Of a stretch of DNA of 64,000 nt, positions 15,407 through 62,825 are shown piece after piece; position 1 is the stretch's first letter, and every line of letters starts with the position of its first letter. Below the pieces are notes generated by a model. It saw nothing but the letters and a program-made list of their open reading frames with translations. It was not told the origin of the DNA and ran no database searches. The position numbers and the translations under genes are program-made. The stretch lies in the IMG/VR virus record IMGVR_UViG_3300029288_000158; one strand, 5' to 3'. The DNA is from a virus.

Positions 15407-15607
15407 ATGAAACAAATCGTCAAAACAATTTTCGGTTCTCATCTTTACGGAACTTCTACTCCTGAATCCGATACAGATTTCAAAGCTGTTCATATGTATT
15501 CTATTCAGGAAATTCTTCTGAAAAAAGACAAAGATAATATTGATTCAAGCACAAATAAGAAAACTAAGACACTAAATACATGTAGATGTTTCGTAGTTAC
15601 AAGATAA
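15407..15607 (+). pseudogene. N-terminal fragment of a Pol-beta-superfamily nucleotidyltransferase (GS..YG....SDxD motif), apparently truncated by the downstream TnpB element
   Basis: MKQIVKTIFGSHLYGTSTPESDTDFKAV is the classic NTase N-terminal motif. The frame then runs into non-homologous sequence and stops inside the tnpB start region. Confidence 0.45.
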
Positions 15608-16857
15608 GATTAGAGACAAACTCAATCCAAACCTCGGCACTTCACCAGAATTGTCAATCGGCTCGTTACGCTTACAATTGGGCTCTGACTAATCAAATCT
15701 CCGCAACAGAACAAGCTAAAGAACTTGCTAAAACAACAAACACCAAACCCATCTACCCTAAAGTTAGTTCTTTTAGCTGGAGTGCTGAGTGGACAAATTT
15801 AAAAAAGAGCGTTCCTTGGTTGAGAGAAGTTTCAAAATGGCCAGCGCAACAAGCATTCCGACATCTTGAACAAGCATACAAAAGATTTTTCAATAAAGGT
15901 GGTTATCCCAAATTCAAGAAATTCTCCGATGCTACAAGTTATACCGAAGGCTGTGTAAGAGTAGGCTACGACTACATTAAGTTACCAAAGATAGGTAAAG
16001 TCAAACTTTCGAGAAAAGGATGGGCTGTTCAAGAAGAAGTAGAACTGTCTTTAGCAACAATTTCGTTTGACGGAGAACACTGGTTTGTTTCTTTTTACTT
16101 GAAAAATAACAACCAGCCTAAACAACTACCAGATTTAACAAATATACTAGAAGATGAAATTCTTGGAGTAGATTTGGGTATAAAGGATTTGGCTATTTGT
16201 TCCGACGGCGAGGTTGTTCCAAACCCAAAAACCTACAAAAAACATCTGAAAAAGTTAAAAAGATTCCAACGAAAATTATCAAAAAAGAAAAAAGGCTCTA
16301 AGAACAGAGAAAAAGCTAAAAGAAAACTAAGAAGAATTCATAACAAAATTCGGAACATTCGCCTAGACAACATCCACAAAATGACATCAAAAATAGTGAA
16401 ATCACAACCTAAAATGATTGTCCTCGAAACCCTAAGACCAAAGAACATGATGAAAAATCACAAATTAGCACAAAGTATAGCCGACGCATCATTCGGAGAA
16501 ATTGTGAGACAGTTCACCTACAAATGTGAATGGAATGGTGTTCACCTTCTTCGTGCGCATCAGTTCTACCCAAGTTCTCAATTTTGTTCTTCATGTGGTC
16601 ACCAAAACAAAAACTTGAAATTAAAAGATAGAGAGTGGATTTGTTCAGAATGCGGAGCAGCCCACGATAGAGATTTCAACGCCGCTAAAAATTTACAATT
16701 TTACGGCTATTGGCTGAACAGCCAGTCTACCGAGGGTTCCTCGGAAAGTTACGCTTGTGGAGGAGATAGGTTGCAGTTCCTTAAAGAACAGTGCTCTCCA
16801 ATAAAACAAGAAATTAAAGATGGAAAAACAAAGAAACCTTGTTTGAATGTCTAAGAT
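15545..16857 (+). mobile_element. IS200/IS605-family TnpB-only (IS1341-like) insertion; ends approximate
   Basis: tnpB sits between two pieces of an apparent NTase-like gene. No tnpA is present. Confidence 0.5.
15586..16854 (+). CDS. tnpB: TnpB (OrfB) RNA-guided nuclease of the IS200/IS605 family
   Basis: RuvC-I ILGVDLGIKDLAICSDG, RuvC-II MIVLETL, zinc finger CSSCGH...CSECG, RuvC-III HDRDFNAAKNL. N-terminal YKIRL...ARYAYNWAL. Confidence 0.9.
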   Translation: MFRSYKIRLETNSIQTSALHQNCQSARYAYNWALTNQISATEQAKELAKTTNTKPIYPKVSSFSWSAEWTNLKKSVPWLREVSKWPAQQAFRHLEQAYKRFFNKGGYPKFKKFSDATSYTEGCVRVGYDYIKLPKIGKVKLSRKGWAVQEEVELSLATISFDGEHWFVSFYLKNNNQPKQLPDLTNILEDEILGVDLGIKDLAICSDGEVVPNPKTYKKHLKKLKRFQRKLSKKKKGSKNREKAKRKLRRIHNKIRNIRLDNIHKMTSKIVKSQPKMIVLETLRPKNMMKNHKLAQSIADASFGEIVRQFTYKCEWNGVHLLRAHQFYPSSQFCSSCGHQNKNLKLKDREWICSECGAAHDRDFNAAKNLQFYGYWLNSQSTEGSSESYACGGDRLQFLKEQCSPIKQEIKDGKTKKPCLNV

Positions 16858-17182
16858 GGAACACCAAATTGAACAGTATGGCGAACGAGTCAAGAAGGCT
16901 GTTGAAGATGGAAAGATTGATTTGAAATCATACTATCACGCTGTTAGAATTGTTTTTGAACTTGAACAAATGCTAACAGAAAGTAGATTGACGTTTCCCA
17001 ATCCAAGAGCTGACTTTCTTTTGAAGATTAGAAACGGAGAATATGATAAAAAGTGGATTGAACATTTTGTTTGTGACGAAATTGAAAGAGTCTTAAAAAT
17101 TCCCAACAATCTTCCTGAACCCAATTTTGAATTTTGGAAAGATTGGATTTTGGATAGGTATGAGTTGAAGTATCAGTGTTAA
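16847..17182 (+). CDS. 111-aa protein; either the C-terminal remainder of the interrupted NTase-like gene or an independent small protein
   Basis: Has its own ATG, which overlaps the tnpB stop. Confidence 0.45.
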   Translation: MSKMEHQIEQYGERVKKAVEDGKIDLKSYYHAVRIVFELEQMLTESRLTFPNPRADFLLKIRNGEYDKKWIEHFVCDEIERVLKIPNNLPEPNFEFWKDWILDRYELKYQC

Positions 17183-21881: not shown

Positions 21882-22652
21882 ATGAGTAAAGACAGTCTTG
21901 GCGACAGAATGAAAGATATTGAATCGAGAACGGAATATTTTCTTCCAAGGAGAACGTATACGCTTCTTCGTTTCGACGGCAAAGCCTTCCACACCTTCAC
22001 CAAAAGTTGCGAACGACCATTTGATTTTAATCTTATGGAGTGTATGCAGACCGCTTGTTTGGAAATTTGTAAAGAAGCCCAAGGTGCGGTTATTGGTTAC
22101 ACTCAATCCGACGAAATTAGTTTGGTTCTTACAGATTTCACAGAACCAACAACTGAGGCTTGGTTTGATGGAAACACTCGTAAGATTCAATCAATTGGCG
22201 CTTCAATTGTTACGAACGCTTTTAATAGAGTTTGGATGAACAAATATGCCGAAGACTATTTGAAGAATGGTGGAAGCATTTCGGATTTTCTTAACAACAT
22301 TAAACTGGCCGTATTTGATTGTCGTGTTTGGTCCACGTCCGACCCGTGGGAAGTATTTAACACCTTTCTTTGGCGTCAGAACGATGCTACAAGAAACAGC
22401 ATTCAAATGGTTTCTCAAAGTATGTTTTCTCATAAGGAGCTTCAAAATAAATCATGTCCGGTTCTACAAGAGATGATTTTTCAAAAAGGACAGAACTGGA
22501 ATGATTATCCAAACGAATGTAAACGCGGAACTTTTGTTTACAGGAAAGATGGAAGTTGGTTTGTTGATAAGAACGGCCCAATTCTAACACAAGATAGAAA
22601 ATGGTTTTTTGATAAACTTCCTTTTATTCCACAACCTTCTTTTGAGGATTAA
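21882..22652 (+). CDS. tRNA-His guanylyltransferase (Thg1)-like 3'-5' nucleotidyltransferase
   Basis: Thg1 signatures LLRFDGKAFHTFTK and GYTQSDEISLVL, and length. Confidence 0.8.
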   Translation: MSKDSLGDRMKDIESRTEYFLPRRTYTLLRFDGKAFHTFTKSCERPFDFNLMECMQTACLEICKEAQGAVIGYTQSDEISLVLTDFTEPTTEAWFDGNTRKIQSIGASIVTNAFNRVWMNKYAEDYLKNGGSISDFLNNIKLAVFDCRVWSTSDPWEVFNTFLWRQNDATRNSIQMVSQSMFSHKELQNKSCPVLQEMIFQKGQNWNDYPNECKRGTFVYRKDGSWFVDKNGPILTQDRKWFFDKLPFIPQPSFED

Positions 22653-23145: not shown

Positions 23146-23379
23146 TTGATATTTATACGGAACATCTTGGAAATAAAAATTATTGAAGAAATTCTAAAGT
23201 TAATTCAATCAGGTAATGTGATATCTTCAGACCAAAAGAAAGAAATCGAATCATTTTGTAAGTATCTACGAGAGAATGACAAAGATTTCAATATTTTGTT
23301 CTTTGGAAATACTCACGCAAGAATTACAACTGACACAAAACACTTTGAAGAATTTAGGAAAATATACCATGAAACTTGA
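23146..23379 (+). CDS. partner small protein, copy B (77 aa)
   Basis: Paralog of 20019-20234. Its stop overlaps the radical-SAM start. Confidence 0.6.
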   Translation: MIFIRNILEIKIIEEILKLIQSGNVISSDQKKEIESFCKYLRENDKDFNILFFGNTHARITTDTKHFEEFRKIYHET

Positions 23380-24328
23380 AGATAACGGATTCTATACTTT
23401 GTCGGACGCTCGTTGTGTTTCGGCAACTCATGAAACAAATTTGATGCGTTGTGAATTGATTCTCACGGATGCTTGTAACTTTAGTTGTAAGTATTGTCGA
23501 GGTCAAAGAAAAGATTTGAAAAAGAATCTTACTTATGAAGAAGCATTGAACATTGTCAACCTTTGGATTTCACAAGGTTTGACGAATGTTCGTTTCTCTG
23601 GTGGCGAACCTACTCTTTGGAAGGGTTTGGAAAATCTTGTTCGTCACTGTAAGAAAAACAATGTTCAACATATTGCGGTTTCTTCCAATGGTTCGGCATC
23701 TATTGAACTTTACGATAGACTGATTGAAGCGGGGGTTAATGATTTTTCCATTTCACTCGATGCTTGTTGTGCGTCTTTCGGTGATTTGATGGCTGGAAAA
23801 GCAGGAGTTTGGGATAAGGTTGTTAATTGTATCTCCCATGTTTCCAAAAAAGTTTACACAACTGTCGGAATTGTTGTGACTGAAGAAACTGTTCACACAT
23901 TGAAAGATGTCGTTATGTTTGCTGCCGACCTTGGGGTTGCCGACATTCGTATCATTTCTGCCGCACAGTTCAATCAAATGTTGGACGTTGCGAACACCAT
24001 TCCTCAATCTGTTTATGACAAGTATCCGATTTTGAAATATCGAATAAACAACACTTTCAACAACATCAATGTTCGTGGTATTCAAGAAACCGATTCTCAC
24101 AAGTGTTGGATTGCTCTTGATGACATGGTTGTCGCTGGAGACTATCATTTTCCTTGTGTCATCTACATGAGAGAACAAGGAAACCCGATTGGAAAAGTCG
24201 GTCCAAACATGCGGGAAGAACGACGAGACTGGGTGAAGAATCACGACACTCATTCCGACCCGATTTGTAAAAAGAATTGTTTGGATTGTATAATTCTTTA
24301 CAACAAGAAGTTCGAGGAGAAGATGTAG
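23369..24328 (+). CDS. radical SAM enzyme with C-terminal Cys-rich auxiliary-cluster region (SPASM/twitch- or MoaA-like clade)
   Basis: CNFSCKYC (Cx3Cx2C), FSGGEPTLW, SSNGS, NDFSISLDA. C-terminal C...C...CKKNCLDC. Confidence 0.75.
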   Translation: MKLEDNGFYTLSDARCVSATHETNLMRCELILTDACNFSCKYCRGQRKDLKKNLTYEEALNIVNLWISQGLTNVRFSGGEPTLWKGLENLVRHCKKNNVQHIAVSSNGSASIELYDRLIEAGVNDFSISLDACCASFGDLMAGKAGVWDKVVNCISHVSKKVYTTVGIVVTEETVHTLKDVVMFAADLGVADIRIISAAQFNQMLDVANTIPQSVYDKYPILKYRINNTFNNINVRGIQETDSHKCWIALDDMVVAGDYHFPCVIYMREQGNPIGKVGPNMREERRDWVKNHDTHSDPICKKNCLDCIILYNKKFEEKM

Positions 24329-25170
24329 ATTCTGTTGACAATTGTGATGTGATTTTTACAAACGACGTTTATCCTGAAAATGTTTTGTCTTGTGGAAAAA
24401 GAAAAATTAAACGAATGGATGGCGTTTTTTGGCAAGAAGATTTCAAAGAACGAAATGAAAAATATAATCTTGCTGCGGAACAATCAGACCACGTTATTTT
24501 CATTTCCGAATATTCTAAGAAATCATTTGAAACACTTTACAAATCACAAATTGAAAATTGCTCGGTAATAACTCATTGGGTGGAAAAGAAGTTTGATTAT
24601 TTTTACGATTGTCAATTTAACAATACATTCTTTTCAATGGCAACGGATTGGAATAGAAAAGAAAAAAGATTGAGTGAAATAGTTAAGTTTGTTGAATTGA
24701 CGGGCTGCAAAATAAATCTTGTTGGGAAATGTGAATATGAAGTTCCGGAAAATATTACTAAGTTTGGATATTTGGAACCAGATTCAATAGAGTTTCTTTC
24801 GGTGATAAAACAATCTTCAGCATTTTTAAATCTAACGTGTAAAGATGCTGCTACAAAAACGGTTTGTCAAGCAATCAACTATGGTCTTCCGGTTTTGTTT
24901 TCAAATTCCGGGGGTGTTTCAGAACTTGTTTTGGATTGTGGGGTTGGAATAAAAGAAGAAGAAGAAATTGATTTTCTTAAAAATGTTCCAGAATTAAAAC
25001 AACAGAATATAATTTTTGGATTTGAACAATTTGTAGAACAATATGCCAAACTCAAAGATAACATTGATAACAGAATGAAAGACGATTTGTTGATGATAGC
25101 TGTTGGAAAATATTTTGAAATAATTAAAGGAGAAATAACAAATGAAAATGAAGAATGTAAACATCATTAG
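24277..25170 (+). CDS. glycosyltransferase-like protein (GT-B C-terminal domain-like). Start is uncertain (TTG at 24277 or ATG at 24415).
   Basis: ...NLVGKCEYEV...GLPVLFSNSGGVSELV resembles the GT4/GT1 C-terminal Rossmann domain. Confidence 0.45.
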   Translation: MFGLYNSLQQEVRGEDVDSVDNCDVIFTNDVYPENVLSCGKRKIKRMDGVFWQEDFKERNEKYNLAAEQSDHVIFISEYSKKSFETLYKSQIENCSVITHWVEKKFDYFYDCQFNNTFFSMATDWNRKEKRLSEIVKFVELTGCKINLVGKCEYEVPENITKFGYLEPDSIEFLSVIKQSSAFLNLTCKDAATKTVCQAINYGLPVLFSNSGGVSELVLDCGVGIKEEEEIDFLKNVPELKQQNIIFGFEQFVEQYAKLKDNIDNRMKDDLLMIAVGKYFEIIKGEITNENEECKHH

Positions 25171-29741: not shown

Positions 29742-32168
29742 ATGGGAACATATTCAGATCGAGTTAAGAAGATTCTTCAACTCGCAAGGGACGAAGCAAA
29801 GAAGCTTGAAACAGATTACATTGGAACGGAACATGTTCTTTTGGGTCTGATTGCGGAAGGAAATGGAAAGGCGATTTCTGTTCTTCAGCAGCAGAATGTT
29901 GATATTTATAGTCTTCAGACGAAACTCAGGACGGCTCTTGCGAGTGGCGGTTTGGGTTCGTTGGTTCCAAACATTCCGCTAACTCCAAGAGCAAAGAAGC
30001 TTTTGGAATTTGCGGTTGAAGAAGCTCAAAATCTTGGTCAGGAAGTTGTTGGAACTGAGCATCTTCTTTTGGCAATGTTTAAGGACGAAAGCAGTCAAGC
30101 ATTTACGTTTCTTTCTTCTTCGGGAGCTGATTACGAAACTTCCAAAAAGTTGGTGGAAGACGGAAATCTTCCGAACAAGCCAATTTCAAATGGTGAAGGT
30201 TCTTCGGAAACTAACTCAGCAGCATCCGGAGAGAAATCTAAGACTCCGATTCTGAATCATTTCTGCCGGGATTTGACTCAAGCAGCACGGGAAGGAAAAC
30301 TCGACCCGATTGTTGGAAGAAATTCGGAAATTGAGAGAACAATTCAGATTCTTGCCCGTAGAAAGAAGAATAATCCCGTTCTTTTGGGCGATGCAGGTGT
30401 TGGGAAGACTGCCATTGTTGAAGGTTTGGCACTTAGGATTGTTTCTAAATCTGTTCCATACATCCTAAACGACAAGCGAATCATGGCTTTGGATATGGCT
30501 TTGCTTGTTGCTGGAACTAAGTATCGTGGACAGTTTGAGGAACGAATCAAGGCAATCATTCAAGAAACAAACAAAAACAAGGACGTGATTTTGTTCATTG
30601 ACGAAATCCACGGAATTGTTGGTGCTGGGGATTCTTCAGAAGGCAATATGGATGCTGCGAACATTTTCAAGCCAGCTCTTGCGCGAGGAGAACTTCAGTG
30701 TATCGGAGCTATCACTTTTGACGAATACAAAAAGTCAATCGAAAAGGACAATGCGCTTGAGCGGCGATTCCAGCCAGTTCAAGTTGACCAACCGAGTATT
30801 CCCGAATCCGTTTTGATTCTCACAGGGTTGAAGGAAAATTACGAAAAGCACCATAATGTTTATTACACGGACGATGCTATCGAGTCGGCAGTTCGTCTTT
30901 CGGAACGGTATATTACCAATCGGTTCCTTCCAGACAAGGCGATTGATGTGATTGACGAAGCTGGCGCAAGGATTCGTATTTCTTCTATGATGACTCCTGA
31001 AATGAGCGAGCTGGAAGAGAAGATTGAAACCTTGAAGAAAGAAAAGGTTGACCTTGTATTTAACCAAAAATACGAGGAAGCTGCCGAAGTTCGCGACCAG
31101 CTCGAAAAGGCCGAGAAACGATTGTCGGATATTAAGGAAGGGTTTAAGAACCAGGAACGACTGGAAGTCAATGGCGACGCAATTGCCGAAACCATTTCTA
31201 AGATGACCGGAATTCCTGTTACCAAATCTTCCGCCGACGAAAACGCCAAGCTGAAGACTCTGGAAGAAACTTTGAAATCCCGAGTTGTTGGTCAAGATGT
31301 TGCTGTTAAGGAAATTTCTAAATCTATTCGTCGCAACCGTGCTGGACTTCACAACAACCGTAGGCCAATTGGCGTTTATATGTTTCTTGGGCCTACTGGA
31401 GTTGGAAAGACCGAATTGGCGAAAGCGTTGGCTGAAGAAGTTTTCAACACCAAGGAAAATCTGATTCGCATTGACATGAGCGAATATGGAGAGAAGTTTA
31501 ATGTTTCGCGTTTGGTTGGTGCTCCTCCGGGGTATGTTGGATATGAAGAAGGCGGAAAGCTGACGGAAGCCGTTCGGAAGAAGCCGTATTCTGTTGTGCT
31601 CCTGGATGAAATTGAAAAGGCGCATCCGGACGTTTGTAACATTCTTCTTCAAGTGTTTGATGACGGACATTTGACGGATTCTCTTGGGCGAAAGGTGAAC
31701 TTCAAGAACACCATTGTCATCATGACTTCTAATCTCGGAAGTCGCGAATTGAGCAAGGGAAATCTTGGGTTTGGTTCTGGAAGCAATGATGTTTACGAGA
31801 AGCTTCGTCGGAATGTTGACGCTGAACTGAAACGCGCTTTTGCTCCAGAATTCTTGAATCGTTTGGATGGCTCTTTGATTTTCCATCCTCTTGAACAAGA
31901 ACATCTGGTTGAGATTGTTGGAATCCAGCTTCGCGACCTCGAAGCTCGTCTTGCTGAAAAGAAGATGAAGATTTCTTGGGACCGAAGTGTGATTGAACAT
32001 CTTGCGAAGGTTTCTTATGACCCAGCTTTTGGTGCTCGTCCTTTGAGGAGGAACATTCAAAATCTGATTGAAGATGCTTTGGCGGATGAGTTTTTGAATG
32101 ACACTTTTGTTGAAGGCGATGAGATTAAATGCTCATACGTTGACGGGAATGTTGTTCTGAGCAAGTAA
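29742..32168 (+). CDS. clpC: ClpC-like class III AAA+ unfoldase (two Clp_N repeats, D1 and D2 AAA modules, UVR-like middle domain, LGF ClpP-docking loop)
   Basis: Walker A GDAGVGKT and GPTGVGKT, N-terminal Clp_N repeats, loop KGNLGFGSG. 808 aa. Confidence 0.9.
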
Positions 32169-38542: not shown

Positions 38543-39760
38543 ATGTCAAATACAATGGCAACAATCGAAAAAGTAGTTAAAACATATCCAATTGAATCAG
38601 CAGATAATATTGAAATGACTCAAGTTCTTGATTACCATGTAGTGACCAAGAAAGGTGAATTCAAAGCTGGTGATTTTGTAATTTACGCAAGAGTTGATTC
38701 TATTTTTCCAGATGGTCTTTCCGAAGAAGATAAAATTAAACACTCCGAACTAAAGAAAATTAAGAAAGAACATTCGGATAATGTAGATATTGATAATCAA
38801 ATTTCAGAAGTTCTTTCGAGAAATACTATTCCTGAATTTGAATTTCTAAGAAAAGATAAATTTACAATTAAAGCGAAGAAATATTCCAAATTTAGAAATG
38901 AACTTGGAAACAAAATTATTTCAGAAGGGATTATTTTTCCTACAACTATTCTGAAAAACAAACAATATATCATTGAAGGAAAAGACGTAACATCTCTTCT
39001 CGGAATCACTAAAGTTGTTGAGGATGAAGAAGAAATTATAACAGAAGAAAAAGAAAACAAGATTAAAAAGTTTCTATTCAAATATAAACTATTTCGTAAA
39101 TTGTATTTTATTTTCGCACCTAAGAAGATTTCCGGCAATTGGGAGTCTTGGCTTCCGGCTAAATCTGATGAGGAGAATATTCAAAAACTATTTTCAAAGA
39201 TTGTTTTTAACCATGGTAGAAATAATTATGTTGTCACTGAAAAACTTGAAGGTAGAAATATTTCTTTCTACAAATATGAAACAAAATCTTGGTTTGGTAA
39301 GAAAGTTAATTATGGAGTTTGTTCAAGAAATCGTCACTTGCCAAAAGATGATGGAAGTGATTTTTGGAGTGCGGTTAAAGATAATGATTTTCTAAACAAA
39401 CTTAAAAATTGCGAAGGAAATATTCTCGTTCGTGGTGAAAATTGCGGGCCAAAGATTCAAGGAAATATTTACAAACTAACAAAAGATAAGATTTTTATCT
39501 TTGATGTTTATAATATCAAGAACCAACGTTTTTACAACTATCAAGAAACTGTTGAATTTTGTAATAGATATGGATTTGAAATGGTTCCGGTGATTTCTGA
39601 TAATTTCACACTTCCAGAAACTGTTTTAGAATTGCTTGAATTCTCTAATGGCAAATCGGTTCTGTATCCAACCATGAGAGAAGGATTAGTGATTCGCAAA
39701 AAAGATGATTATACGATTTCTTTCAAAGCAAAATCGCCGGAGTATTTGGCAAAGAAATGA
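38543..39760 (+). CDS. ATP-dependent RNA ligase (covalent nucleotidyltransferase superfamily, Rnl2/Rnl5-like with an N-terminal extra domain)
   Basis: Motif I TEKLEG, Ia CSRNRH, III IFIFDV, IV EGLVIRK, V ISFKAKS. Confidence 0.7.
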   Translation: MSNTMATIEKVVKTYPIESADNIEMTQVLDYHVVTKKGEFKAGDFVIYARVDSIFPDGLSEEDKIKHSELKKIKKEHSDNVDIDNQISEVLSRNTIPEFEFLRKDKFTIKAKKYSKFRNELGNKIISEGIIFPTTILKNKQYIIEGKDVTSLLGITKVVEDEEEIITEEKENKIKKFLFKYKLFRKLYFIFAPKKISGNWESWLPAKSDEENIQKLFSKIVFNHGRNNYVVTEKLEGRNISFYKYETKSWFGKKVNYGVCSRNRHLPKDDGSDFWSAVKDNDFLNKLKNCEGNILVRGENCGPKIQGNIYKLTKDKIFIFDVYNIKNQRFYNYQETVEFCNRYGFEMVPVISDNFTLPETVLELLEFSNGKSVLYPTMREGLVIRKKDDYTISFKAKSPEYLAKK

Positions 39761-40000: not shown

Positions 40001-40579
40001 ATGTGTGATTGTGAAAAAACCGAAGAGAAGTCTACACCAATGTCTTCAAAGATTTCCGACTTTTTCCTAAATTCTCGGAAGATTTTTCTGTCTTCGGAAA
40101 TCAACGATAAGGTAGCAGATGAAATTGTCCAGAAGCTAATCTATCTTGATTCTCAGAGTCATGAAGACATTTATCTTTTTGTGAATTCTCCAGGAGGAGT
40201 CATCACATCAGGTATGGCAATTCTTGATGCTACGAATGCTGTTAAGTCGGACGTTCGCACAATCGTTACGGGACAAGCAGCTTCTATGGGAGCAATGATT
40301 CTAGCTAATGGTGCTAAAGGAAAGCGTTACTCTTGGCCAAATGCTCGTATTATGATTCATCAACCATTGATTTCTGGAAACTTTCAAGGAAACATTGTTG
40401 AAATTCAGACGGAAGCAAAAGAGATTGATCGAATGAAGACAACTCTTAATAACCTACTTGCCGAAAAGACAGGTCAACCAATTGAGAAAATCACTAAAGA
40501 CACCGATCGAGATTTCTTCATGGGATCTCAGGAGGCTCTTGAATATGGCATGGTTGATGTAGTTGAAACTTTGATTTAA
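40001..40579 (+). CDS. clpP: ATP-dependent Clp protease proteolytic subunit ClpP
   Basis: Catalytic triad context GQAASMGA (Ser) and MIHQP (His), C-terminal Asp. Collinear with bacterial ClpP throughout. Confidence 0.9.
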   Translation: MCDCEKTEEKSTPMSSKISDFFLNSRKIFLSSEINDKVADEIVQKLIYLDSQSHEDIYLFVNSPGGVITSGMAILDATNAVKSDVRTIVTGQAASMGAMILANGAKGKRYSWPNARIMIHQPLISGNFQGNIVEIQTEAKEIDRMKTTLNNLLAEKTGQPIEKITKDTDRDFFMGSQEALEYGMVDVVETLI

Positions 40580-48557: not shown

Positions 48558-48941
48558 ATGATGAAAAACAAAGAAGGTAATTGCGTCGCTGTAGGAAAGT
48601 TGACAAGTTATGAAGAAAAACATGGTAATGCTCACTATGTTTTGACAATTGATTTGATTAGCGAAACCGAGGAAAGCAAAGACAATTTCGAAGCTTTGGG
48701 TGACCTTGGTTATGCAGATGTTGCTTGTCAATGTATAAAACAAAAAGAACCTCTTGAAATTAGTAACAAAGTAAAACTTGGAAAAATTGAAGATTATCTA
48801 CAGATTATTCTTTCTGATTCGGATGAAAAAAGAAAGAGAGCAAAAACAATCAAAAATAAAACTATGAAAGCTTCTGTAAAAATGTATGCAGAATTCTTTC
48901 ATATCACTGATGGCCGCAAAACCACTAAAAAGGAGAACTAA
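48558..48941 (+). CDS. hypothetical protein
   Basis: Track ORF. Its last codons carry the SD for infC. Confidence 0.5.
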   Translation: MMKNKEGNCVAVGKLTSYEEKHGNAHYVLTIDLISETEESKDNFEALGDLGYADVACQCIKQKEPLEISNKVKLGKIEDYLQIILSDSDEKRKRAKTIKNKTMKASVKMYAEFFHITDGRKTTKKEN

Positions 48942-48942
48942 A

Positions 48943-49455
48943 ATTTCTACTAACCTTGATACTATCCGCGTAAATGACGATATTCGTGTTCGTGAAATCC
49001 GTTTGATTGATGAAAATGGAAATCAGATTGGAATTGTTCCTACAACTTCCGCAAAACAGGAAGCCTCTTCATTGGGTCTTGACCTCGTTGAAATCAATCC
49101 AAATGCTCGTCCTCCTGTTTGTAAGATGATGAACTTTGGAAAATACAAGTTTGAACTAAAAAAGAAAGAAAAGGAAGCTAAGAGTCGTCAGAAGGTTGTT
49201 GAATTGAAGCAAATCAATTTCCACCCAAACACTCAATACCACGACTACACATATCGTCTGGAACAAGCCAAAGGATTCATCAAATCCGGAAACAAGGTTA
49301 AGGCTACTGTAACTTTCCGTGGTCGTGAAATGAATTTCCTTTCAAATGGAAAAGAGATTCTTGATAAGATGACTACTGATTTGAAAGAAGTTGCGACAGT
49401 TGAAGTAAACGAAATGGAAGGCAAACAAATGTTTGTCGTCTTCCGTCCGGTGTGA
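48943..49455 (+). CDS. infC: translation initiation factor IF-3 homolog with a non-canonical ATT start
   Basis: Collinear with bacterial IF3 (IRVREIRLIDENGNQIGIV..., GLDLVEINPNARPPVCKMMNFGKYK, ATVTFRGREM). No in-frame ATG or GTG near the N-terminus. AAGGAGA lies 7 nt before the ATT. Confidence 0.8.
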   Translation: MSTNLDTIRVNDDIRVREIRLIDENGNQIGIVPTTSAKQEASSLGLDLVEINPNARPPVCKMMNFGKYKFELKKKEKEAKSRQKVVELKQINFHPNTQYHDYTYRLEQAKGFIKSGNKVKATVTFRGREMNFLSNGKEILDKMTTDLKEVATVEVNEMEGKQMFVVFRPV

Positions 49456-53104: not shown

Positions 53105-55036
53105 ATGATTCTAAACCAAGCACCAAAACAGAATGTCATTTCTTCTTGTGTTAGTTCTCAGAAGCTTCGTATTTCTTCTGATGAACTCGATCAGGCTATT
53201 CTTGTCGATCTTCAGATTTCCAAACTCTACCGAAACAAAATCCGAGCAGTTGTCCAGGAATACATTTCGAACGCGCGAGATGCTAACGTAGAAGCTGGAA
53301 AGAAAGATTGTCAAATTTCTATTCACGTTCCAAAGCCTTCCGAACCTTGGTTTTCGGTTTCGGATGTTGGTCTTGGAATGAGTCCGGAAATTGTTGATAA
53401 GTATCTTTGTCAAACTGGGGCAAGTTCCAAGAGAAACACTAACGATTCTATTGGTTCTTTTGGACTTGGCGCTAAGTGTGGATTCGCATACATCAAGGAG
53501 CGTAAGACTCAGTTTAACATTACTACGGTTTCTGATGGAATAAAGCATTTCTACATTTGCCACTATGATGAATTTGGATTTCCTAATGTTTCTCTTTTGT
53601 CTTCCGAACCAAGCAACGATATTGGGACAGAAGTTAAAATTCCTGTAGATAATGGAGATGTTGGTAGTTTTACCCATGAACTTCAGAGGATTCTTTCTTT
53701 TTGGGTAGACAAATATCCTTTTGAAACTTCAAGTAATATTGATTTGAAAATTCCAGAAGTCTTTTATGATTGTGATGGTTATACAATTTATAAAGGTCGT
53801 TTTGGATTTCAATCAAATTATGGAAATGATTTTATTTCTATCGCAGGGATTCCTTACGACCGATGTTCAACATTTGATTCGTTCACAATCGTAGGAAAGA
53901 TGCCGATTGGTGTCCTTGATATTGTTCCTTCCCGTGAATTTTTGGAAGAAACCAAAAATAACGACGAACATATCAATCCTATCTTTGATTCGGCTAAAAA
54001 GTATATCATTGAACATTTCCAAAAGCTTGTTGATGGAATGAAGAATGAATTGGAAGTTTGGTTGGCGTTTCAGTCAAAGAAGATTCCAAACGAACTTTGT
54101 AAGCATTTGAAATATAAGAATGAACCGATTGATTTTGGTTCTATTTGTAAAAGGCTACCTGGATTTTATTCAAGTCAAATTGATTTTGCTTCGGAAATTA
54201 AATTCATTCACAACAATTCATGTCTAAGGTTTGAAAATGACCAGAGATATCGTATTCGTAGCATTCTCAATACAAATAATTACATTGTCTACTATGATGC
54301 TGATGAACTTAAGGGGTGGAGAAAGAATCAAAACTATTTTGAAACTTGGAATTCCTTCTCCAAGAATCTTCGTGAACAGATTCTACAAAAAGCTATTGTT
54401 TATTCTACTCTTAAGACTCCTAGAGCTAAGAGAGATAAGACAGACAAACCGTCTTGCTGGAAACTTGAATCGGAACGTTGGGTCGCACAATTTGAAGATA
54501 TTTCAACTATTTCTGGAACTTGGTTTGTTGGGGCTAATCTCAAACCAGTTGATGAAAAAGTCATGAAGATTTTCTCAAAGGTTAAAGCCGATTGGAGCAG
54601 TCAAATTGTTTCGGGTGATATTTACATGATTCCTAAGCGAAATGTAAAACTTGCCGAAGCTAACAAAGACCTTCGGGATATTTTTGAAGTCGCCAAAGAA
54701 AACATCTTGAAAGAAGAATCGATCAAGAAGATTTATTCCTTCTACATTAAGACGACGTTTGGAGACTCGGCTATTCATCTTTGGAGGAACCCTGGAGAAA
54801 TTAAAGATGAAGTTCTCAAGGAAGTTCTGAACAAAGGACTAATTAAAGACCACGGTTGGCGACAAGATTTCCAACACGGTTCAAATCACGAGTTTTATGC
54901 GAAGTTGTTCGGAAAGAAATTCATGACGCCTGACATTGAACACGTTCTTGAGAAATATGATATTTGTTCCAGGTTTACAAACGCACATGAAAACAACATG
55001 ATGGAACTTGTTAAATTTGTAGGAGATAGAAAATGA
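53105..55036 (+). CDS. Hsp90/HtpG-like GHKL ATPase
   Basis: LYRNKIRAVVQEYISNARDA (N box), VSDVGLGMS (G1), LCQTGASSK, IGSFGLGAKCGFAY (G2). Length 643 aa matches HtpG. Confidence 0.75.
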   Translation: MILNQAPKQNVISSCVSSQKLRISSDELDQAILVDLQISKLYRNKIRAVVQEYISNARDANVEAGKKDCQISIHVPKPSEPWFSVSDVGLGMSPEIVDKYLCQTGASSKRNTNDSIGSFGLGAKCGFAYIKERKTQFNITTVSDGIKHFYICHYDEFGFPNVSLLSSEPSNDIGTEVKIPVDNGDVGSFTHELQRILSFWVDKYPFETSSNIDLKIPEVFYDCDGYTIYKGRFGFQSNYGNDFISIAGIPYDRCSTFDSFTIVGKMPIGVLDIVPSREFLEETKNNDEHINPIFDSAKKYIIEHFQKLVDGMKNELEVWLAFQSKKIPNELCKHLKYKNEPIDFGSICKRLPGFYSSQIDFASEIKFIHNNSCLRFENDQRYRIRSILNTNNYIVYYDADELKGWRKNQNYFETWNSFSKNLREQILQKAIVYSTLKTPRAKRDKTDKPSCWKLESERWVAQFEDISTISGTWFVGANLKPVDEKVMKIFSKVKADWSSQIVSGDIYMIPKRNVKLAEANKDLRDIFEVAKENILKEESIKKIYSFYIKTTFGDSAIHLWRNPGEIKDEVLKEVLNKGLIKDHGWRQDFQHGSNHEFYAKLFGKKFMTPDIEHVLEKYDICSRFTNAHENNMMELVKFVGDRK

Positions 55037-55314
55037 ACAACCAACGAAGTTTGTTTTACATTTCCGCAAAGACAACTAATAATGAAACCGTGTTCTTTGT
55101 TCACGATTCAAATTATGGAGAAGTAATAATCGGTTTCACAACGGAATTTGGTTTAGCCAAGATTGAATCGGAAACATATATGAAACGAGAAGTTACAAGA
55201 ATCAAGAAAGCTGTTAAATTTCAATTCGGTTCTTCAAGATTTTCTAAAGAAATCTTCATCAATCTTGATTCTGTCAAACTACACGAAGTCAAAATAATCC
55301 ACGAGGAAACTTAA
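55033..55314 (+). CDS. hypothetical protein
   Basis: Track ORF. Confidence 0.5.
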   Translation: MNNQRSLFYISAKTTNNETVFFVHDSNYGEVIIGFTTEFGLAKIESETYMKREVTRIKKAVKFQFGSSRFSKEIFINLDSVKLHEVKIIHEET

Positions 55315-55316
55315 AA

Positions 55317-56117
55317 ATGAACTACATCCTAAACGAAAATTCAATCTCATTTGTAGTTAATTCTACTCCATTTTCTATTCCCCGAACGGATGACAAGTTC
55401 CATTCTGCTATCGGAATCATCTTCGATCCAGTCTTCAACGAGCAGCAGAAGTATGAAAATCTACAGAAGCTAATTGACGACAAGTTCTATGTTCTCAGTT
55501 ATTTAAATCTTTGTCCAGTCATTGCTTCTGGTAAGTCATATGGTTCTGTTAAGTTTTCAAACATCCGCAGATTCATTCCAAATCTTTCGGAGCATTCTAT
55601 TCCACACGAAATATTTGTCAATCTTTTAAACAATCTTAGTTGTGTTGAAAATGGTTCGGACATTCTAACATTCATTTTCAACAACAAGATTCTTATTTCT
55701 AACGACGGCAACCTATACATATACAAAGGAATCAGAGAAGATTATACAGATTGTTTTTCTGGAACAGTTCTTAACAAAGTTGGACTGACAAATGAAATGC
55801 CAAGGGAACAAGTAACAATTTATCATGGTGGCCCCGGCTTTTACTTTGGAACCTATTCTCGGGCTGTGTCAATGTCAAGAGGTCATATCGTCATTTGTAA
55901 GATTGACATTAAGGACATTGTTTGGGTTGATGAAAACGAAATGAAGGTATGTAAGTATAAAATTATCAAAGAAGAAACCAAGGAACTGCCCTTTGGAACC
56001 TACGATTTTGCCGAGGTTGTTCCGGAGGAGCCTTCACCCGTACCGGAGCCAAAGAAGCCTTTTAAGGCACTCGCTGGGCTTCGTAGGATGGGTCTGTGGC
56101 GAAGGAAGAAGGCTTGA
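55317..56117 (+). CDS. hypothetical protein with Pro-rich basic C-terminal tail
   Basis: Track ORF. Confidence 0.5.
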   Translation: MNYILNENSISFVVNSTPFSIPRTDDKFHSAIGIIFDPVFNEQQKYENLQKLIDDKFYVLSYLNLCPVIASGKSYGSVKFSNIRRFIPNLSEHSIPHEIFVNLLNNLSCVENGSDILTFIFNNKILISNDGNLYIYKGIREDYTDCFSGTVLNKVGLTNEMPREQVTIYHGGPGFYFGTYSRAVSMSRGHIVICKIDIKDIVWVDENEMKVCKYKIIKEETKELPFGTYDFAEVVPEEPSPVPEPKKPFKALAGLRRMGLWRRKKA

Positions 56118-58641: not shown

Positions 58642-59475
58642 ATGAATACATATGTAATTCATCATAACGATTCTGATGGTTATGGTGCTGGTCTGGCTGC
58701 TTATACGAAGTTTGGAAATGAAGCGCGGTATCTTCCAATTGATTATGGTTGGAAGTTTCCCGAACTCGAACCAAATTCAAATGTTTATATCTTGGATTTT
58801 TCTATTCTGAGAAATGAACTTGACGAACTTGTAGCAAAAATGAATTTTGTTCTTGTTCTTGACCATCATAAGAGCGCAGAAGAACAATTGAAGAATCATC
58901 CTAATGCTATTTTTGACATGAATCGTTCTGGAGCTGGAATTGCTTGGGATTATTTTCATTCTAACGTTACAAGGCCAGATTTCATTAACTACATTGAAGA
59001 TGCGGATTTGTGGCGATTCTCTCTACCAAATTCAAAAGATGTTAGGAATTCTATCTTTCTAATTGATTTGAACATTGAAGAATATACCAAAGAATTATTC
59101 AAACCAATTTCTGAAAGAGTGCTTGAAGGCAAAACAATAACAAAATATATGAATTCTCTTTTGAAAATTGGAAGCGAATATAAACATATTATTCAAATCG
59201 ATGAATTCAAAATGGCGGTTGTTAATAGCTGTTTGATTCAATCGGATTTTGGAAACTCACTTTTTAACAAACACTGCAACCATGGCGAAGCTGATTTTGC
59301 AGGAGTGTATTTCAATCTTGGTGACGGAACAGTGAAATTTTCGTGCCGTTCTGTTGGAGATTTCGATGTTTCTTCTATTTGTAAACGGTTTGGAGGAGGT
59401 GGACACAAGAACGCTGCCGGATTCCAAATTCCCGAAGAAAAATTTAACTTCAAAAAGATTTCTTCGGATAAATAA
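58642..59475 (+). CDS. DHH/DHHA1-family phosphoesterase (NrnA/nanoRNase-like)
   Basis: DHH motifs HHNDSDGYGAG, LDHH, and DHHA1 GGGH near the C-terminus. Confidence 0.75.
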   Translation: MNTYVIHHNDSDGYGAGLAAYTKFGNEARYLPIDYGWKFPELEPNSNVYILDFSILRNELDELVAKMNFVLVLDHHKSAEEQLKNHPNAIFDMNRSGAGIAWDYFHSNVTRPDFINYIEDADLWRFSLPNSKDVRNSIFLIDLNIEEYTKELFKPISERVLEGKTITKYMNSLLKIGSEYKHIIQIDEFKMAVVNSCLIQSDFGNSLFNKHCNHGEADFAGVYFNLGDGTVKFSCRSVGDFDVSSICKRFGGGGHKNAAGFQIPEEKFNFKKISSDK

Positions 59476-61673: not shown

Positions 61674-62825
61674 TCAGAAAAAATAGGAGCTTGAAATGTC
61701 TGGACCGTTGTGATGAATGACCCGATTGAACTTCATCAAATTTTGAAGTTTGTCAAGCAGTTCAAACGCAGGAACATTAAGAAGTTTGCCATTTTCAACA
61801 ATTGGACAAATCAAATCCATCTGGTCAATACATGAAATTGCCAGCGAAGGAATGATTTTAACACAACTTGTCAGAATGTCTTTTTCAATGCTTTCTTTCA
61901 ACAAGTCAAGATTGATTGGAGCAAAACGAATGCTTCCCTGGAAATCATTTGGAATGTTTGTTTCATCAACAATCTTTTCGAAAATCTTTCCTTCAACCTC
62001 AAACGGAAGAGGCCCAGCACCGTGACGAGTCAAATACGTTCGGGTGCAGTAAAAAACTTCCATTTCATCAACACCGATATCTTTTAGAATTCTAGAAGCG
62101 TTAACGGAGCCAGTCTTGCTTCTTGTGACATGCGGGAAGAAATAATGGTCTTCATCCAAAAGAAGGCCTTGATTTCCTTCAAACAACAACGTTTCGTATT
62201 TCGTAATTTCGTTTGTCTTACGGAAATGAGTTGTCTGAACCATCTGAACGCATTCATTAACAAACTTTTCAATAATTCCTTCGTCGTAGAAATGAGAAGG
62301 AATTTCAAGTCCAATTTGTTCAAAACGCGGAACAAAATATTCATCCCGAATGTGGCGAATCTTGTTAGCAAATCCAACCGAGGCAATGTTACTAACAGTT
62401 GTCTTGTGGGGAGTTTCACAACGAATCACAGTTTCGTTAATACCCATTCCACAAGACCCGTGACGAGAAGCACCACGAGAAATCTCCAATTCCTGATTAA
62501 CCATCATGTCATATGGAAGAGTCAGACGGGAATTAGGATGAATGAAGACTTCTGTTTTACGAGAAATTTTGTTGTTCTCTTTACAATAAACAATCGGATT
62601 GGTGATGAAATATTTGGACAAATATGTATCCGACCCCAACCACGTTCCAGAAGAAATGTGGCGGAATGCGTGACGTTTTCCATTGTATTCAACCGTATGA
62701 GAAGTCTGAGCACCACCCGAAGACCGAACGGTAATAGAATTCTTATGTTGAGACGCAAGGAAAGCGGTAGTAATCCCTTTACCCTCGTCGCCTAGATTAG
62801 CTCCAACAATTCCAACAGCTTTCAT
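61674..62825 (-). CDS. adenylosuccinate synthetase family protein (PurA/PurZ-like)
   Basis: GANLGDEGKGI (GDEGKGK P-loop), GGAQTSHTV, GSCGMGINE, LLFEGNQGLLLDEDHYFFPHVT, TRHGAGPLP. All collinear with PurA. Confidence 0.8.
   Translation of the reverse strand: MKAVGIVGANLGDEGKGITTAFLASQHKNSITVRSSGGAQTSHTVEYNGKRHAFRHISSGTWLGSDTYLSKYFITNPIVYCKENNKISRKTEVFIHPNSRLTLPYDMMVNQELEISRGASRHGSCGMGINETVIRCETPHKTTVSNIASVGFANKIRHIRDEYFVPRFEQIGLEIPSHFYDEGIIEKFVNECVQMVQTTHFRKTNEITKYETLLFEGNQGLLLDEDHYFFPHVTRSKTGSVNASRILKDIGVDEMEVFYCTRTYLTRHGAGPLPFEVEGKIFEKIVDETNIPNDFQGSIRFAPINLDLLKESIEKDILTSCVKIIPSLAISCIDQMDLICPIVENGKLLNVPAFELLDKLQNLMKFNRVIHHNGPDISSSYFF

Follow-up and report, generated by a model that had tools for sequence, protein, structure and literature searches.

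The 64,000-nucleotide stretch of viral DNA studied here (IMG/VR record IMGVR_UViG_3300029288_000158; the whole stretch is referred to as the window) encodes a Thg1-like protein (TLP) that probably serves in the templated repair of tRNA 5' ends, a function to which we assign a rough probability of 0.6. The observations behind this assignment are the family membership of the protein, its intact active site, its fold, its repair-type sequence, the linkage of TLP genes to RNA ligase genes in phages, and the tRNA and translation-factor genes carried by the phage itself. The gene is positioned as follows:

21882-22652, + strand: Thg1-like protein (TLP), ATG to TAA, 256 amino acids

The open reading frame (ORF) begins 4 nt past the preceding stop codon and ends 2 nt short of the next start codon, in a long series of co-directional small genes. 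A scan for promoters and terminators around the TLP gene returned counts not above those in shuffled sequence. A separate gene call of 297 amino acids had raised the suspicion of an alternative genetic code, which was rejected because that frame is uninterrupted under the standard code. The original prediction had recognized a Thg1-like 3'-5' nucleotidyltransferase at this position from two motifs. Both are indeed present, residues 28-41 reading LLRFDGKAFHTFTK and residues 70-84 reading IGYTQSDEISLVLTD, and the identification was confirmed by profile searches. The Pfam Thg1 model PF04446 matched with an E-value of 7.9e-28 and 97.4 bits (curated cut-off 29.2) over profile positions 2-128 of 130, and PHROG 4717, 'tRNA-His guanylyltransferase', with an E-value of 2.8e-76, while NCBIfam held no model matching the protein. 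The best match in the PDB was the TLP of Bacillus thuringiensis (BtTLP; 4KGK/4KGM) with an E-value of 2e-47 over residues 4-242, followed by fungal, archaeal and human Thg1/TLP entries at 1e-8 to 5e-5. Judged by these matches, which lie far beyond chance, the window TLP is a genuine member of the Thg1 family. An identical protein is present in a second metagenomic sample, and relatives with 74-79% identity exist.

To assess the active site, residue conservation was scored in an alignment of the window TLP with 33 homologues of 49-79% identity. The conserved carboxylates that hold the metal ions are D30, D75 and E76 in BtTLP and D29, D76 and E77 in the human enzyme; E12, R28, R131 and R147 of BtTLP position the nucleoside triphosphate (NTP), and H35 and a conserved lysine belong to the same set of NTP-binding and activation residues (PMC3701042). 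The original prediction had proposed an alignment as a check for missing catalytic carboxylates, and in this alignment the three residues D32, D77 and E78 of the window TLP correspond to BtTLP D30, D75 and E76 and are invariant. In pairwise alignments, E14, R30, R148 and R165 correspond to BtTLP E12, R28, R131 and R147, and these four residues, together with H37 and K101, are all invariant across the 34 sequences. The active site is thus intact, and by analogy with characterized relatives the protein is expected to be an active enzyme. The catalytic palm domain spans approximately residues 8-151. An AlphaFold2 model built from the homologue alignment had a mean predicted local distance difference test score of 90.1 and a predicted template modelling score of 0.87. 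When this model was compared to the PDB with Foldseek, all 32 matches with E-values of 0.001 or lower were Thg1/TLP chains, the top match being BtTLP (E = 8.4e-25; template modelling scores 0.80/0.89). The next fold class followed at an E-value of about 0.01, other palm families not being significant.

With respect to the type of enzyme, the window TLP is 39% identical to BtTLP over 247 residues as compared to about 20% for eukaryotic Thg1, and the E-value of 2e-47 for BtTLP contrasts with 1.1e-8 for the Candida, 3.5e-8 for the yeast and 5e-5 for the human protein. A HINNLYN segment is the hallmark of eukaryotic Thg1. At the site where fungal Thg1 carries it, the window TLP reads ATRNSIQMV and BtTLP reads ASKNSISMV, which can be summarized as (R/K)NSI(Q/S)MV. 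Being closer to BtTLP than to Thg1 and lacking HINNLYN, the window TLP is classed on sequence grounds with the repair-type TLPs of bacteria and not with the tRNA-His-specific Thg1 enzymes of eukaryotes. It shares its fold and catalytic residues with the yeast, Candida and human Thg1 enzymes, and Thg1 and TLPs have a common three-step chemistry of 3'-5' addition (PMC6471195). The difference resides in the substrate: Thg1 is specific for tRNA-His and adds G-1 without a template, whereas TLPs work with a template and independently of the anticodon (PMC3061083, PMC4820378).

The likeness to BtTLP extends to the length class, the three carboxylates, the NTP-binding arginines and lysine, and the (R/K)NSI(Q/S)MV segment. 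Unlike BtTLP, the window TLP carries an insertion of 15 residues following residue 125, where length varies throughout the family. In the MaTLP-tRNA structure, the acceptor stem and elbow of the tRNA are bound through a beta-hairpin and the anticodon is left untouched; this hairpin, R198-R215, contacts the elbow and measures the length of the acceptor stem (PMC4820378). The model of the window TLP predicts a short beta-hairpin at residues 217-229, directly after K214-R215-G216, of which K214-R215 are nearly invariant and G216 is invariant among the homologues, whereas the length of the region varies greatly; at 13 residues, the hairpin is shorter than that of BtTLP. By analogy with MaTLP, the predicted hairpin may contact tRNA (PMC4820378).

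What such an enzyme would do is best known from BtTLP. BtTLP prefers 5'-truncated tRNAs 5- to 160-fold and is not restricted to tRNA-His, TLPs require the 3' strand as a template, and the templated addition of any missing nucleotide with a kinetic preference for 5'-truncated tRNAs is shown for BtTLP and MaTLP only (PMC3061083). Since the TLPs of lytic Bacillus myophages among the GenBank phages (Hobo, BM15, Bcp1, BMBsp2 and others) share 76-78% identity with BtTLP, the biochemistry of BtTLP transfers well to phage TLPs. From the same identity values, the TLP gene of B. thuringiensis may be of phage origin, or the transfer may have occurred in the reverse direction.

TLPs are widespread in phages. 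Homologues were found in 164 GenBank phage records, 159 of which cover at least 80% of the window TLP, and the carriers include phages of Bacillus (46 records), the Prevotella Lak megaphages (15), and phages of Caulobacter (13) and Mycobacterium (11). The window TLP belongs to the same family as these cultured-phage proteins (PHROG 4717, with members in Bacillus phages BSP36, Bcp1 and Hobo, Fusobacterium phage FNU3 and the Lak megaphages), its identity to any one of them being at most 45%. The cultured-phage TLPs are usually annotated as tRNA-His guanylyltransferase, and their genes lie among small early or middle genes; in Bcp1 and FNU3 the annotated neighbourhoods consist mostly of hypothetical proteins. 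A scan of IMG/VR identified at least 592 TLP loci on contigs ranging from under 10 kb to 373 kb. To define the neighbourhoods of these genes, we took the best 80 of the at least 592 loci with 10-kb flanks, which formed 73 distinct groups after removal of near-duplicates, clustered all ORFs located within 4 kb of the TLP gene, and confirmed the resulting families with Pfam. The recurrent neighbours within 4 kb were:

Rnl5-type RNA ligase (PF21189 + PF09414): 9 loci, the most recurrent neighbour
ATP-dependent DNA ligase (PF01068): 8 loci
HAD_SAK_2, HAD domain in Swiss Army Knife RNA repair proteins (PF18143): 8 loci
Nucleoside 2-deoxyribosyltransferase-like (PF15891): 8 loci
NADAR (PF08719): 7 loci
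RlaP (PF10127): 6 loci
YqeY (PF09424): 6 loci
Second RNA ligase type (PF09414): 5 loci

An RNA ligase was located within 10 kb of the TLP gene in 19 of the 73 distinct loci. In 13 of these 19 the distance was 2.5 kb or less, compared to 27% expected under a uniform spread (binomial p = 2e-4, a value derived from an internal test of the gap distribution and not from the base rate around unrelated genes). This close spacing shows that the linkage between TLP and RNA ligase genes in phages is real. Intact RlaP genes were found near the TLP gene in 6 distinct loci, and 4 of the 6 tended in like manner to lie within 2.5 kb, but once near-duplicates were removed the tendency fell short of significance (p = 0.06). 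Of the 73 distinct loci, 29 had one or more of ligase, RlaP and HAD_SAK_2; the counts for these three families were obtained by BLAST with single representatives and are hence lower bounds.

In the window itself, the original prediction had combined the TLP with an RNA ligase and two nucleotidyltransferase-like fragments into a tRNA-repair toolkit. The genes concerned are:

15407-15607, + strand: N-terminal remnant of an RlaP-type (Pol-beta fold) nucleotidyltransferase; phrog_388 at 2.9e-16, profile positions 32-87
15586-16854, + strand: TnpB (IS605 OrfB / Cas12f-like), 422 amino acids; PF01385 at 5e-27, PF07282 at 4.9e-21, PF12323 at 2.3e-7, phrog_506 at 3e-114
16847-17182, + strand: C-terminal remnant of an RlaP-type nucleotidyltransferase, ORF of 111 amino acids; phrog_388 at 1.2e-19, profile positions 227-331
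38543-39760, + strand: Rnl5-type RNA ligase, 405 amino acids, N-terminal OB fold and adenylyltransferase domain; PF09414 at 1.8e-27, PF21189 at 4.6e-15

The ligase is real. It also matched phrog_968 at 2.6e-49, and its sole solved relatives are the structures of Naegleria gruberi Rnl5 (5COT NgrRnl, 1.3e-27), so that from its sequence it is a ligase of the Naegleria/Deinococcus Rnl5 type and not a T4 Rnl1-type anticodon-loop ligase. Ligases of the Rnl5 family seal 3'-OH/5'-phosphate nicks in duplex RNA, which is not the task of T4 Rnl1. Given the recurrent linkage in other phages, this ligase is the probable functional partner of the TLP.

The two nucleotidyltransferase-like fragments are likewise genuine features, but instead of working tools they are remnants of a single RlaP gene interrupted by TnpB. 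The N-terminal piece, to which the Pfam RlaP model gave 6e-4, below its cut-off, retains the GS...DxD motif (GSHLYGTSTPESDTDF) before its frame enters the TnpB gene and ends there. The two pieces span about 980 nt in intact RlaP homologues from T4-like phages, whereas here approximately 170 residues (profile positions 88-226) are missing. The same disruption is found in the second metagenomic sample (L002). Based on these sequences, the RlaP gene of this phage was very probably destroyed by a TnpB insertion and is dead. An IStron, in which a group I intron carrying TnpB would re-splice the split gene, was considered and rejected, since no group I intron or any other Rfam family reached threshold in the window and about 170 residues are absent; no TnpA gene lies beside TnpB in the RlaP locus. 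A second TnpB, 50% identical to the first, is located at L085:3603-4901, about 6 kb upstream of the window and beside a tRNA-Lys gene, and comparison of the two copies for element boundaries revealed no terminal DNA in common. Among 185,579 genomes searched for TnpB relatives as a clue to the host of the phage, the best identity was 41%, the relatives being scattered over Bacillota, Cyanobacteria and Bacteroidota.

The toolkit idea therefore holds in part. The link between TLP and ligase recurs across phages, whereas in the window RlaP is dead and no operon exists: the RlaP remnant and the ligase lie at distances of 4.7 kb and 16 kb from the TLP gene, respectively, and 21 kb from each other, so that the genes are spread over 23 kb. 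Moreover, no polynucleotide kinase/phosphatase (Pnkp), RtcB or CCA-adding enzyme was found among the Pfam-annotated genes in the surveyed portion of the larger contig described below (81.8-162.2 kb, approximately 80 kb out of 305,169 bp). The sole phosphatase-like Pfam match upstream of the window is a generic metallophosphatase.

The original prediction had further suggested a search for tRNA genes and for countermeasures to anticodon nucleases elsewhere in the genome. Countermeasures of the Pnkp kind were not seen in the 80 kb surveyed, and there are no tRNA genes within the window, but tRNA genes flank it on both sides. Together with a translation factor gene inside the window, they are:

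L085:5456-5532, about 2.1 kb upstream of the window: tRNA-Lys(UUU), flanked by a TnpB gene and a LAGLIDADG-like ORF; its acceptor stem is perfect
L086:256-5654, window minus strand, about 3.2-9.7 kb past the window 3' end: tRNA cluster Thr-UGU, 85-nt 'Met'-CAU, Tyr-GUA, Ser-UGA, Arg-UCU
48886-49455, + strand: translation initiation factor IF3, both domains (IF3_N 1.1e-30, IF3_C 5.2e-25)

The IF3 gene is in keeping with a large phage that commandeers the translation of its host. The anticodon nuclease PrrC and PARIS classically target tRNA-Lys(UUU). A 203-amino-acid PP-loop ATPase (PF01171, TilS-type N-terminal domain) is interspersed among the downstream tRNA genes, and together with the CAU tRNA it could be a phage tRNA-Ile2(CAU)/lysidine-synthase pair for AUA codons in an AT-rich genome. 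tRNA genes with a CUA anticodon (called 'tRNA-Pyl' by ARAGORN; amber suppressors) were also observed within about 1.5 kb of the TLP gene in several other viral loci (L057:11269-11362, L069:11480-11827 and L071:7949-8296), which suggests stop-codon recoding in these phages.

With BtTLP and MaTLP as models, the enzyme would be a tetramer in which a dimer binds a tRNA through its acceptor stem and elbow. The enzyme would activate a 5'-monophosphate end with ATP or GTP, or take a 5'-triphosphate end directly, then add the NTP that pairs with the opposite base of the 3' strand and halt once the acceptor stem has reached its full length. In this manner, 5'-trimmed tRNAs of both the host and the phage would be restored during infection, and the TLP, alongside an Rnl5-type ligase sealing nicks in duplex RNA, would probably sustain translation. 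The catalytic activity of the window TLP, its tRNA substrate, and the damage or defence that would make repair useful are all inferred here.

Several points weigh against this interpretation. The literature searched contains no experimental study of any phage TLP, and a search of the literature for defence nucleases or other bacterial nucleases that trim tRNA 5' ends turned up none, so that the damage for a TLP to repair is hypothetical; the tRNA-directed defences described target anticodon loops, 3' tails, or parts of the tRNA that are left unspecified. A tRNA gene lies within 10 kb of the TLP in only 23 of the 80 viral loci. The internal nature of the linkage test counts here as well. In the window, the ligase is 16 kb distant from the TLP instead of adjacent, and RlaP is a dead partner; directly around the TLP lie ORFans without a family match and an unassigned radical SAM enzyme.

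A competing explanation is that the TLP matures or maintains tRNA-His by adding G-1 opposite C73 of the phage or host tRNA for charging by histidyl-tRNA synthetase. The family name and the database annotations 'tRNA-His guanylyltransferase' point in this direction, as does the second, anticodon-dependent binding mode that TLPs retain for adding G-1 to tRNA-His (PMC4820378); BtTLP indeed adds a templated G-1 opposite C73 in vitro (PMC3061083), and tRNA-His is found within 10 kb of the TLP in four of the viral loci. However, all five tRNA-His genes linked to TLPs encode both G at -1 and C at 73, so the TLP is not needed for G-1 addition; a gene-encoded G-1 that requires no enzymatic addition is also the bacterial standard (PMC3061083). 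No tRNA-His gene was seen in the approximately 80 kb of contig examined, the window TLP has a repair-type sequence without the motif of eukaryotic Thg1, and the 5- to 160-fold preference of BtTLP for truncated tRNAs points elsewhere. We therefore rejected G-1 addition as the main role on the basis of the tRNA-His gene sequences and retain it as a minor and unlikely rival. The editing of tRNA 5' ends, in which mismatched encoded nucleotides of the acceptor stem are removed and re-synthesized as by Dictyostelium DdiTLP3, is the sole role of a repair-type TLP proven in vivo (PMC6471195), and phage tRNA genes are often just a few nucleotides apart. Yet when the first three acceptor pairs were inspected in the 137 tRNAs from TLP-linked loci and from the contig flanks, only 6 tRNAs showed a mismatch, and the stem of the phage tRNA-Lys is perfect. 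With no editing signature among the 137 tRNAs, this mitochondrial-style role was rejected as largely refuted and is very improbable.

The TLP might also act on RNAs other than tRNA, for example by repair or extension of 5' ends in phage transcripts, small RNAs or rRNA. Roles outside tRNA seem to exist for some eukaryotic TLPs, and broad RNA recognition has been described, as have TLPs whose roles are unassigned (PMC6471195; PMC5041481). That 57 of the 80 viral loci have no tRNA gene within 10 kb would be in line with this possibility, as would the co-occurring ligase, which from its family assignment acts on nicks in duplex RNA generally. On the other hand, all characterized bacterial and archaeal TLPs prefer tRNA (PMC3061083, PMC4820378), the model of the window TLP keeps a hairpin at the position of the elbow-binding hairpin, and the phage invests in tRNAs and translation genes including IF3; a role outside tRNA is accordingly quite unlikely. 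It is hardly credible that the TLP is a decaying or functionless passenger, or a palm domain repurposed, for instance, as a synthase of nucleotide signals like its distant GGDEF and Cas10 relatives. The fate of RlaP does show that RNA-repair genes decay in this phage genome, but the TLP ORF is full-length, its catalytic and NTP-binding residues are invariant, relatives with 74-79% identity and an identical protein in a second sample exist, and structural matches to other palm families were not significant.

Templated 5'-end repair of tRNAs, the function favoured here, differs from the role foreseen in the original prediction, namely a defence against anticodon nucleases such as PrrC, RloC or colicins. 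This part of the prediction could not be upheld: because TLPs attach to the acceptor stem and elbow without regard to the anticodon and need a 3'-strand template (PMC4820378; PMC3061083), the TLP cannot mend the cuts that these nucleases make in anticodon loops. The concept of phage enzymes that repair damaged tRNA as a counter-defence is shared with Pnkp and Rnl1 of T4, the countermeasure to PrrC. Nevertheless, the analogy fails on both defining components and on the chemistry, since no Pnkp is present in the 80 kb examined, the ligase is of the Rnl5 and not the Rnl1 type, and TLP chemistry is directed at the 5' ends of acceptor stems and not at anticodon loops. A repair module of RlaP and RNA ligase was reportedly described by Burroughs and Aravind, but unlike that module the window has no intact RlaP adjoining a ligase, RlaP being split and the ligase 21 kb away. 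RlaP, RNA ligases and Thg1 have been listed together as the RNA-repair repertoire of jumbo phages (Iyer et al. 2021, PMC7824862). All three gene types occur here, and viral TLPs cluster with Rnl5-type ligases, RlaP and HAD_SAK_2; in contrast to the published repertoire, RlaP is broken by TnpB and 23 kb are needed to span the scattered genes. Nor are TLPs confined to jumbo phages, being common in contigs of 50-170 kb as well.

The identical TLP is encoded on the source contig, a metagenomic contig of 305,169 bp (ENA ERZ27247363 k141_806084), of which the window corresponds to roughly 89.4-153.4 kb; the gene order is repeated in a second sample. The G+C content of the window is 34.9%. A nucleotide search against 50,697 phage records gave no match, and the phage therefore has no sequenced close relative. 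The gene content comprises rIIA/rIIB, GIY-YIG homing endonucleases, ArdC-like anti-restriction proteins, a Dam methyltransferase and many PHROG-matching genes, as well as an SPFH protein, a DHH phosphoesterase and a T4 endonuclease V-like protein. Together with the size of the contig, this supports the phage source assumed at the outset; by its genes the window appears to be a non-structural region of a very large phage, and the attribution to a phage is reasonable. Further individual features are:

23276-24328, + strand: radical SAM enzyme, 350 amino acids, CNFSCKYC cluster motif, three genes downstream of the TLP
24277-25170: glycosyltransferase-like ORF, downstream of and overlapping the radical SAM gene
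29742-32168, + strand: ClpB/ClpC-type double-AAA+ unfoldase, 808 amino acids, full length, Clp_N and UVR motif
40001-40579, + strand: ClpP protease (3.1e-66), 8 kb from the Clp unfoldase gene
53105-56117, + strand: rIIA (GHKL ATPase) and rIIB (phrog_612 at 6.8e-61, phrog_609 at 3.4e-20), with a 93-amino-acid ORF between them
58642-59475: DHH/DHHA1 phosphoesterase, downstream of rIIA/rIIB
61674-62825, - strand: adenylosuccinate-synthetase-family gene, 383 amino acids; PurZ-annotated PHROG at 1.5e-47, best solved relatives PurA at 1e-19

The unfoldase and ClpP genes raise the possibility that a Clp proteolytic machine is encoded by the phage itself. The radical SAM enzyme has merely generic core similarity to SkfB, MoaA and viperin, and comparison by similarity established no link to the TLP. 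PurZ is the enzyme of 2-aminoadenine 'Z-genomes'. No DatZ or MazZ partner was recognized beside the PurA/PurZ-family gene of the window, and 5 of the 80 other viral loci have a homologue of this gene no more than 10 kb away from the TLP.

As an annotation, the result is of little weight: the window TLP is an ordinary member of a known and routinely annotated family of phage enzymes, which is contained in PHROGs and named in 164 GenBank phages. Nor is the toolkit idea new, since the combination of Thg1, RlaP and RNA ligases for RNA repair in phages was published in 2021 (PMC7824862). Its relevance lies elsewhere. Because the identity of BtTLP to the TLPs of lytic Bacillus myophages (76-78%) places it in the phage clade, the biochemistry and crystal structures of BtTLP effectively describe a phage-clade enzyme. 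The link of TLPs to Rnl5-type duplex-RNA ligases points to the repair of base-paired tRNA regions and not to classic anticodon-loop repair. In the literature searched we found neither a defence directed at tRNA 5' ends nor an in vivo study of a phage TLP, and the abundance of TLPs in phages is for this reason a pointer to an overlooked kind of tRNA damage during infection. A tentative extension, which we regard as rather doubtful, is that phage TLPs and Rnl5-type ligases, with or without RlaP and HAD_SAK_2, form a counter-defence module against undescribed host nucleases that would attack the acceptor stem of tRNAs by cutting or trimming its 5' strand. If this were true, the spread of TLPs over at least 592 viral contigs would be the evolutionary footprint of an undiscovered, acceptor-stem-directed defence.

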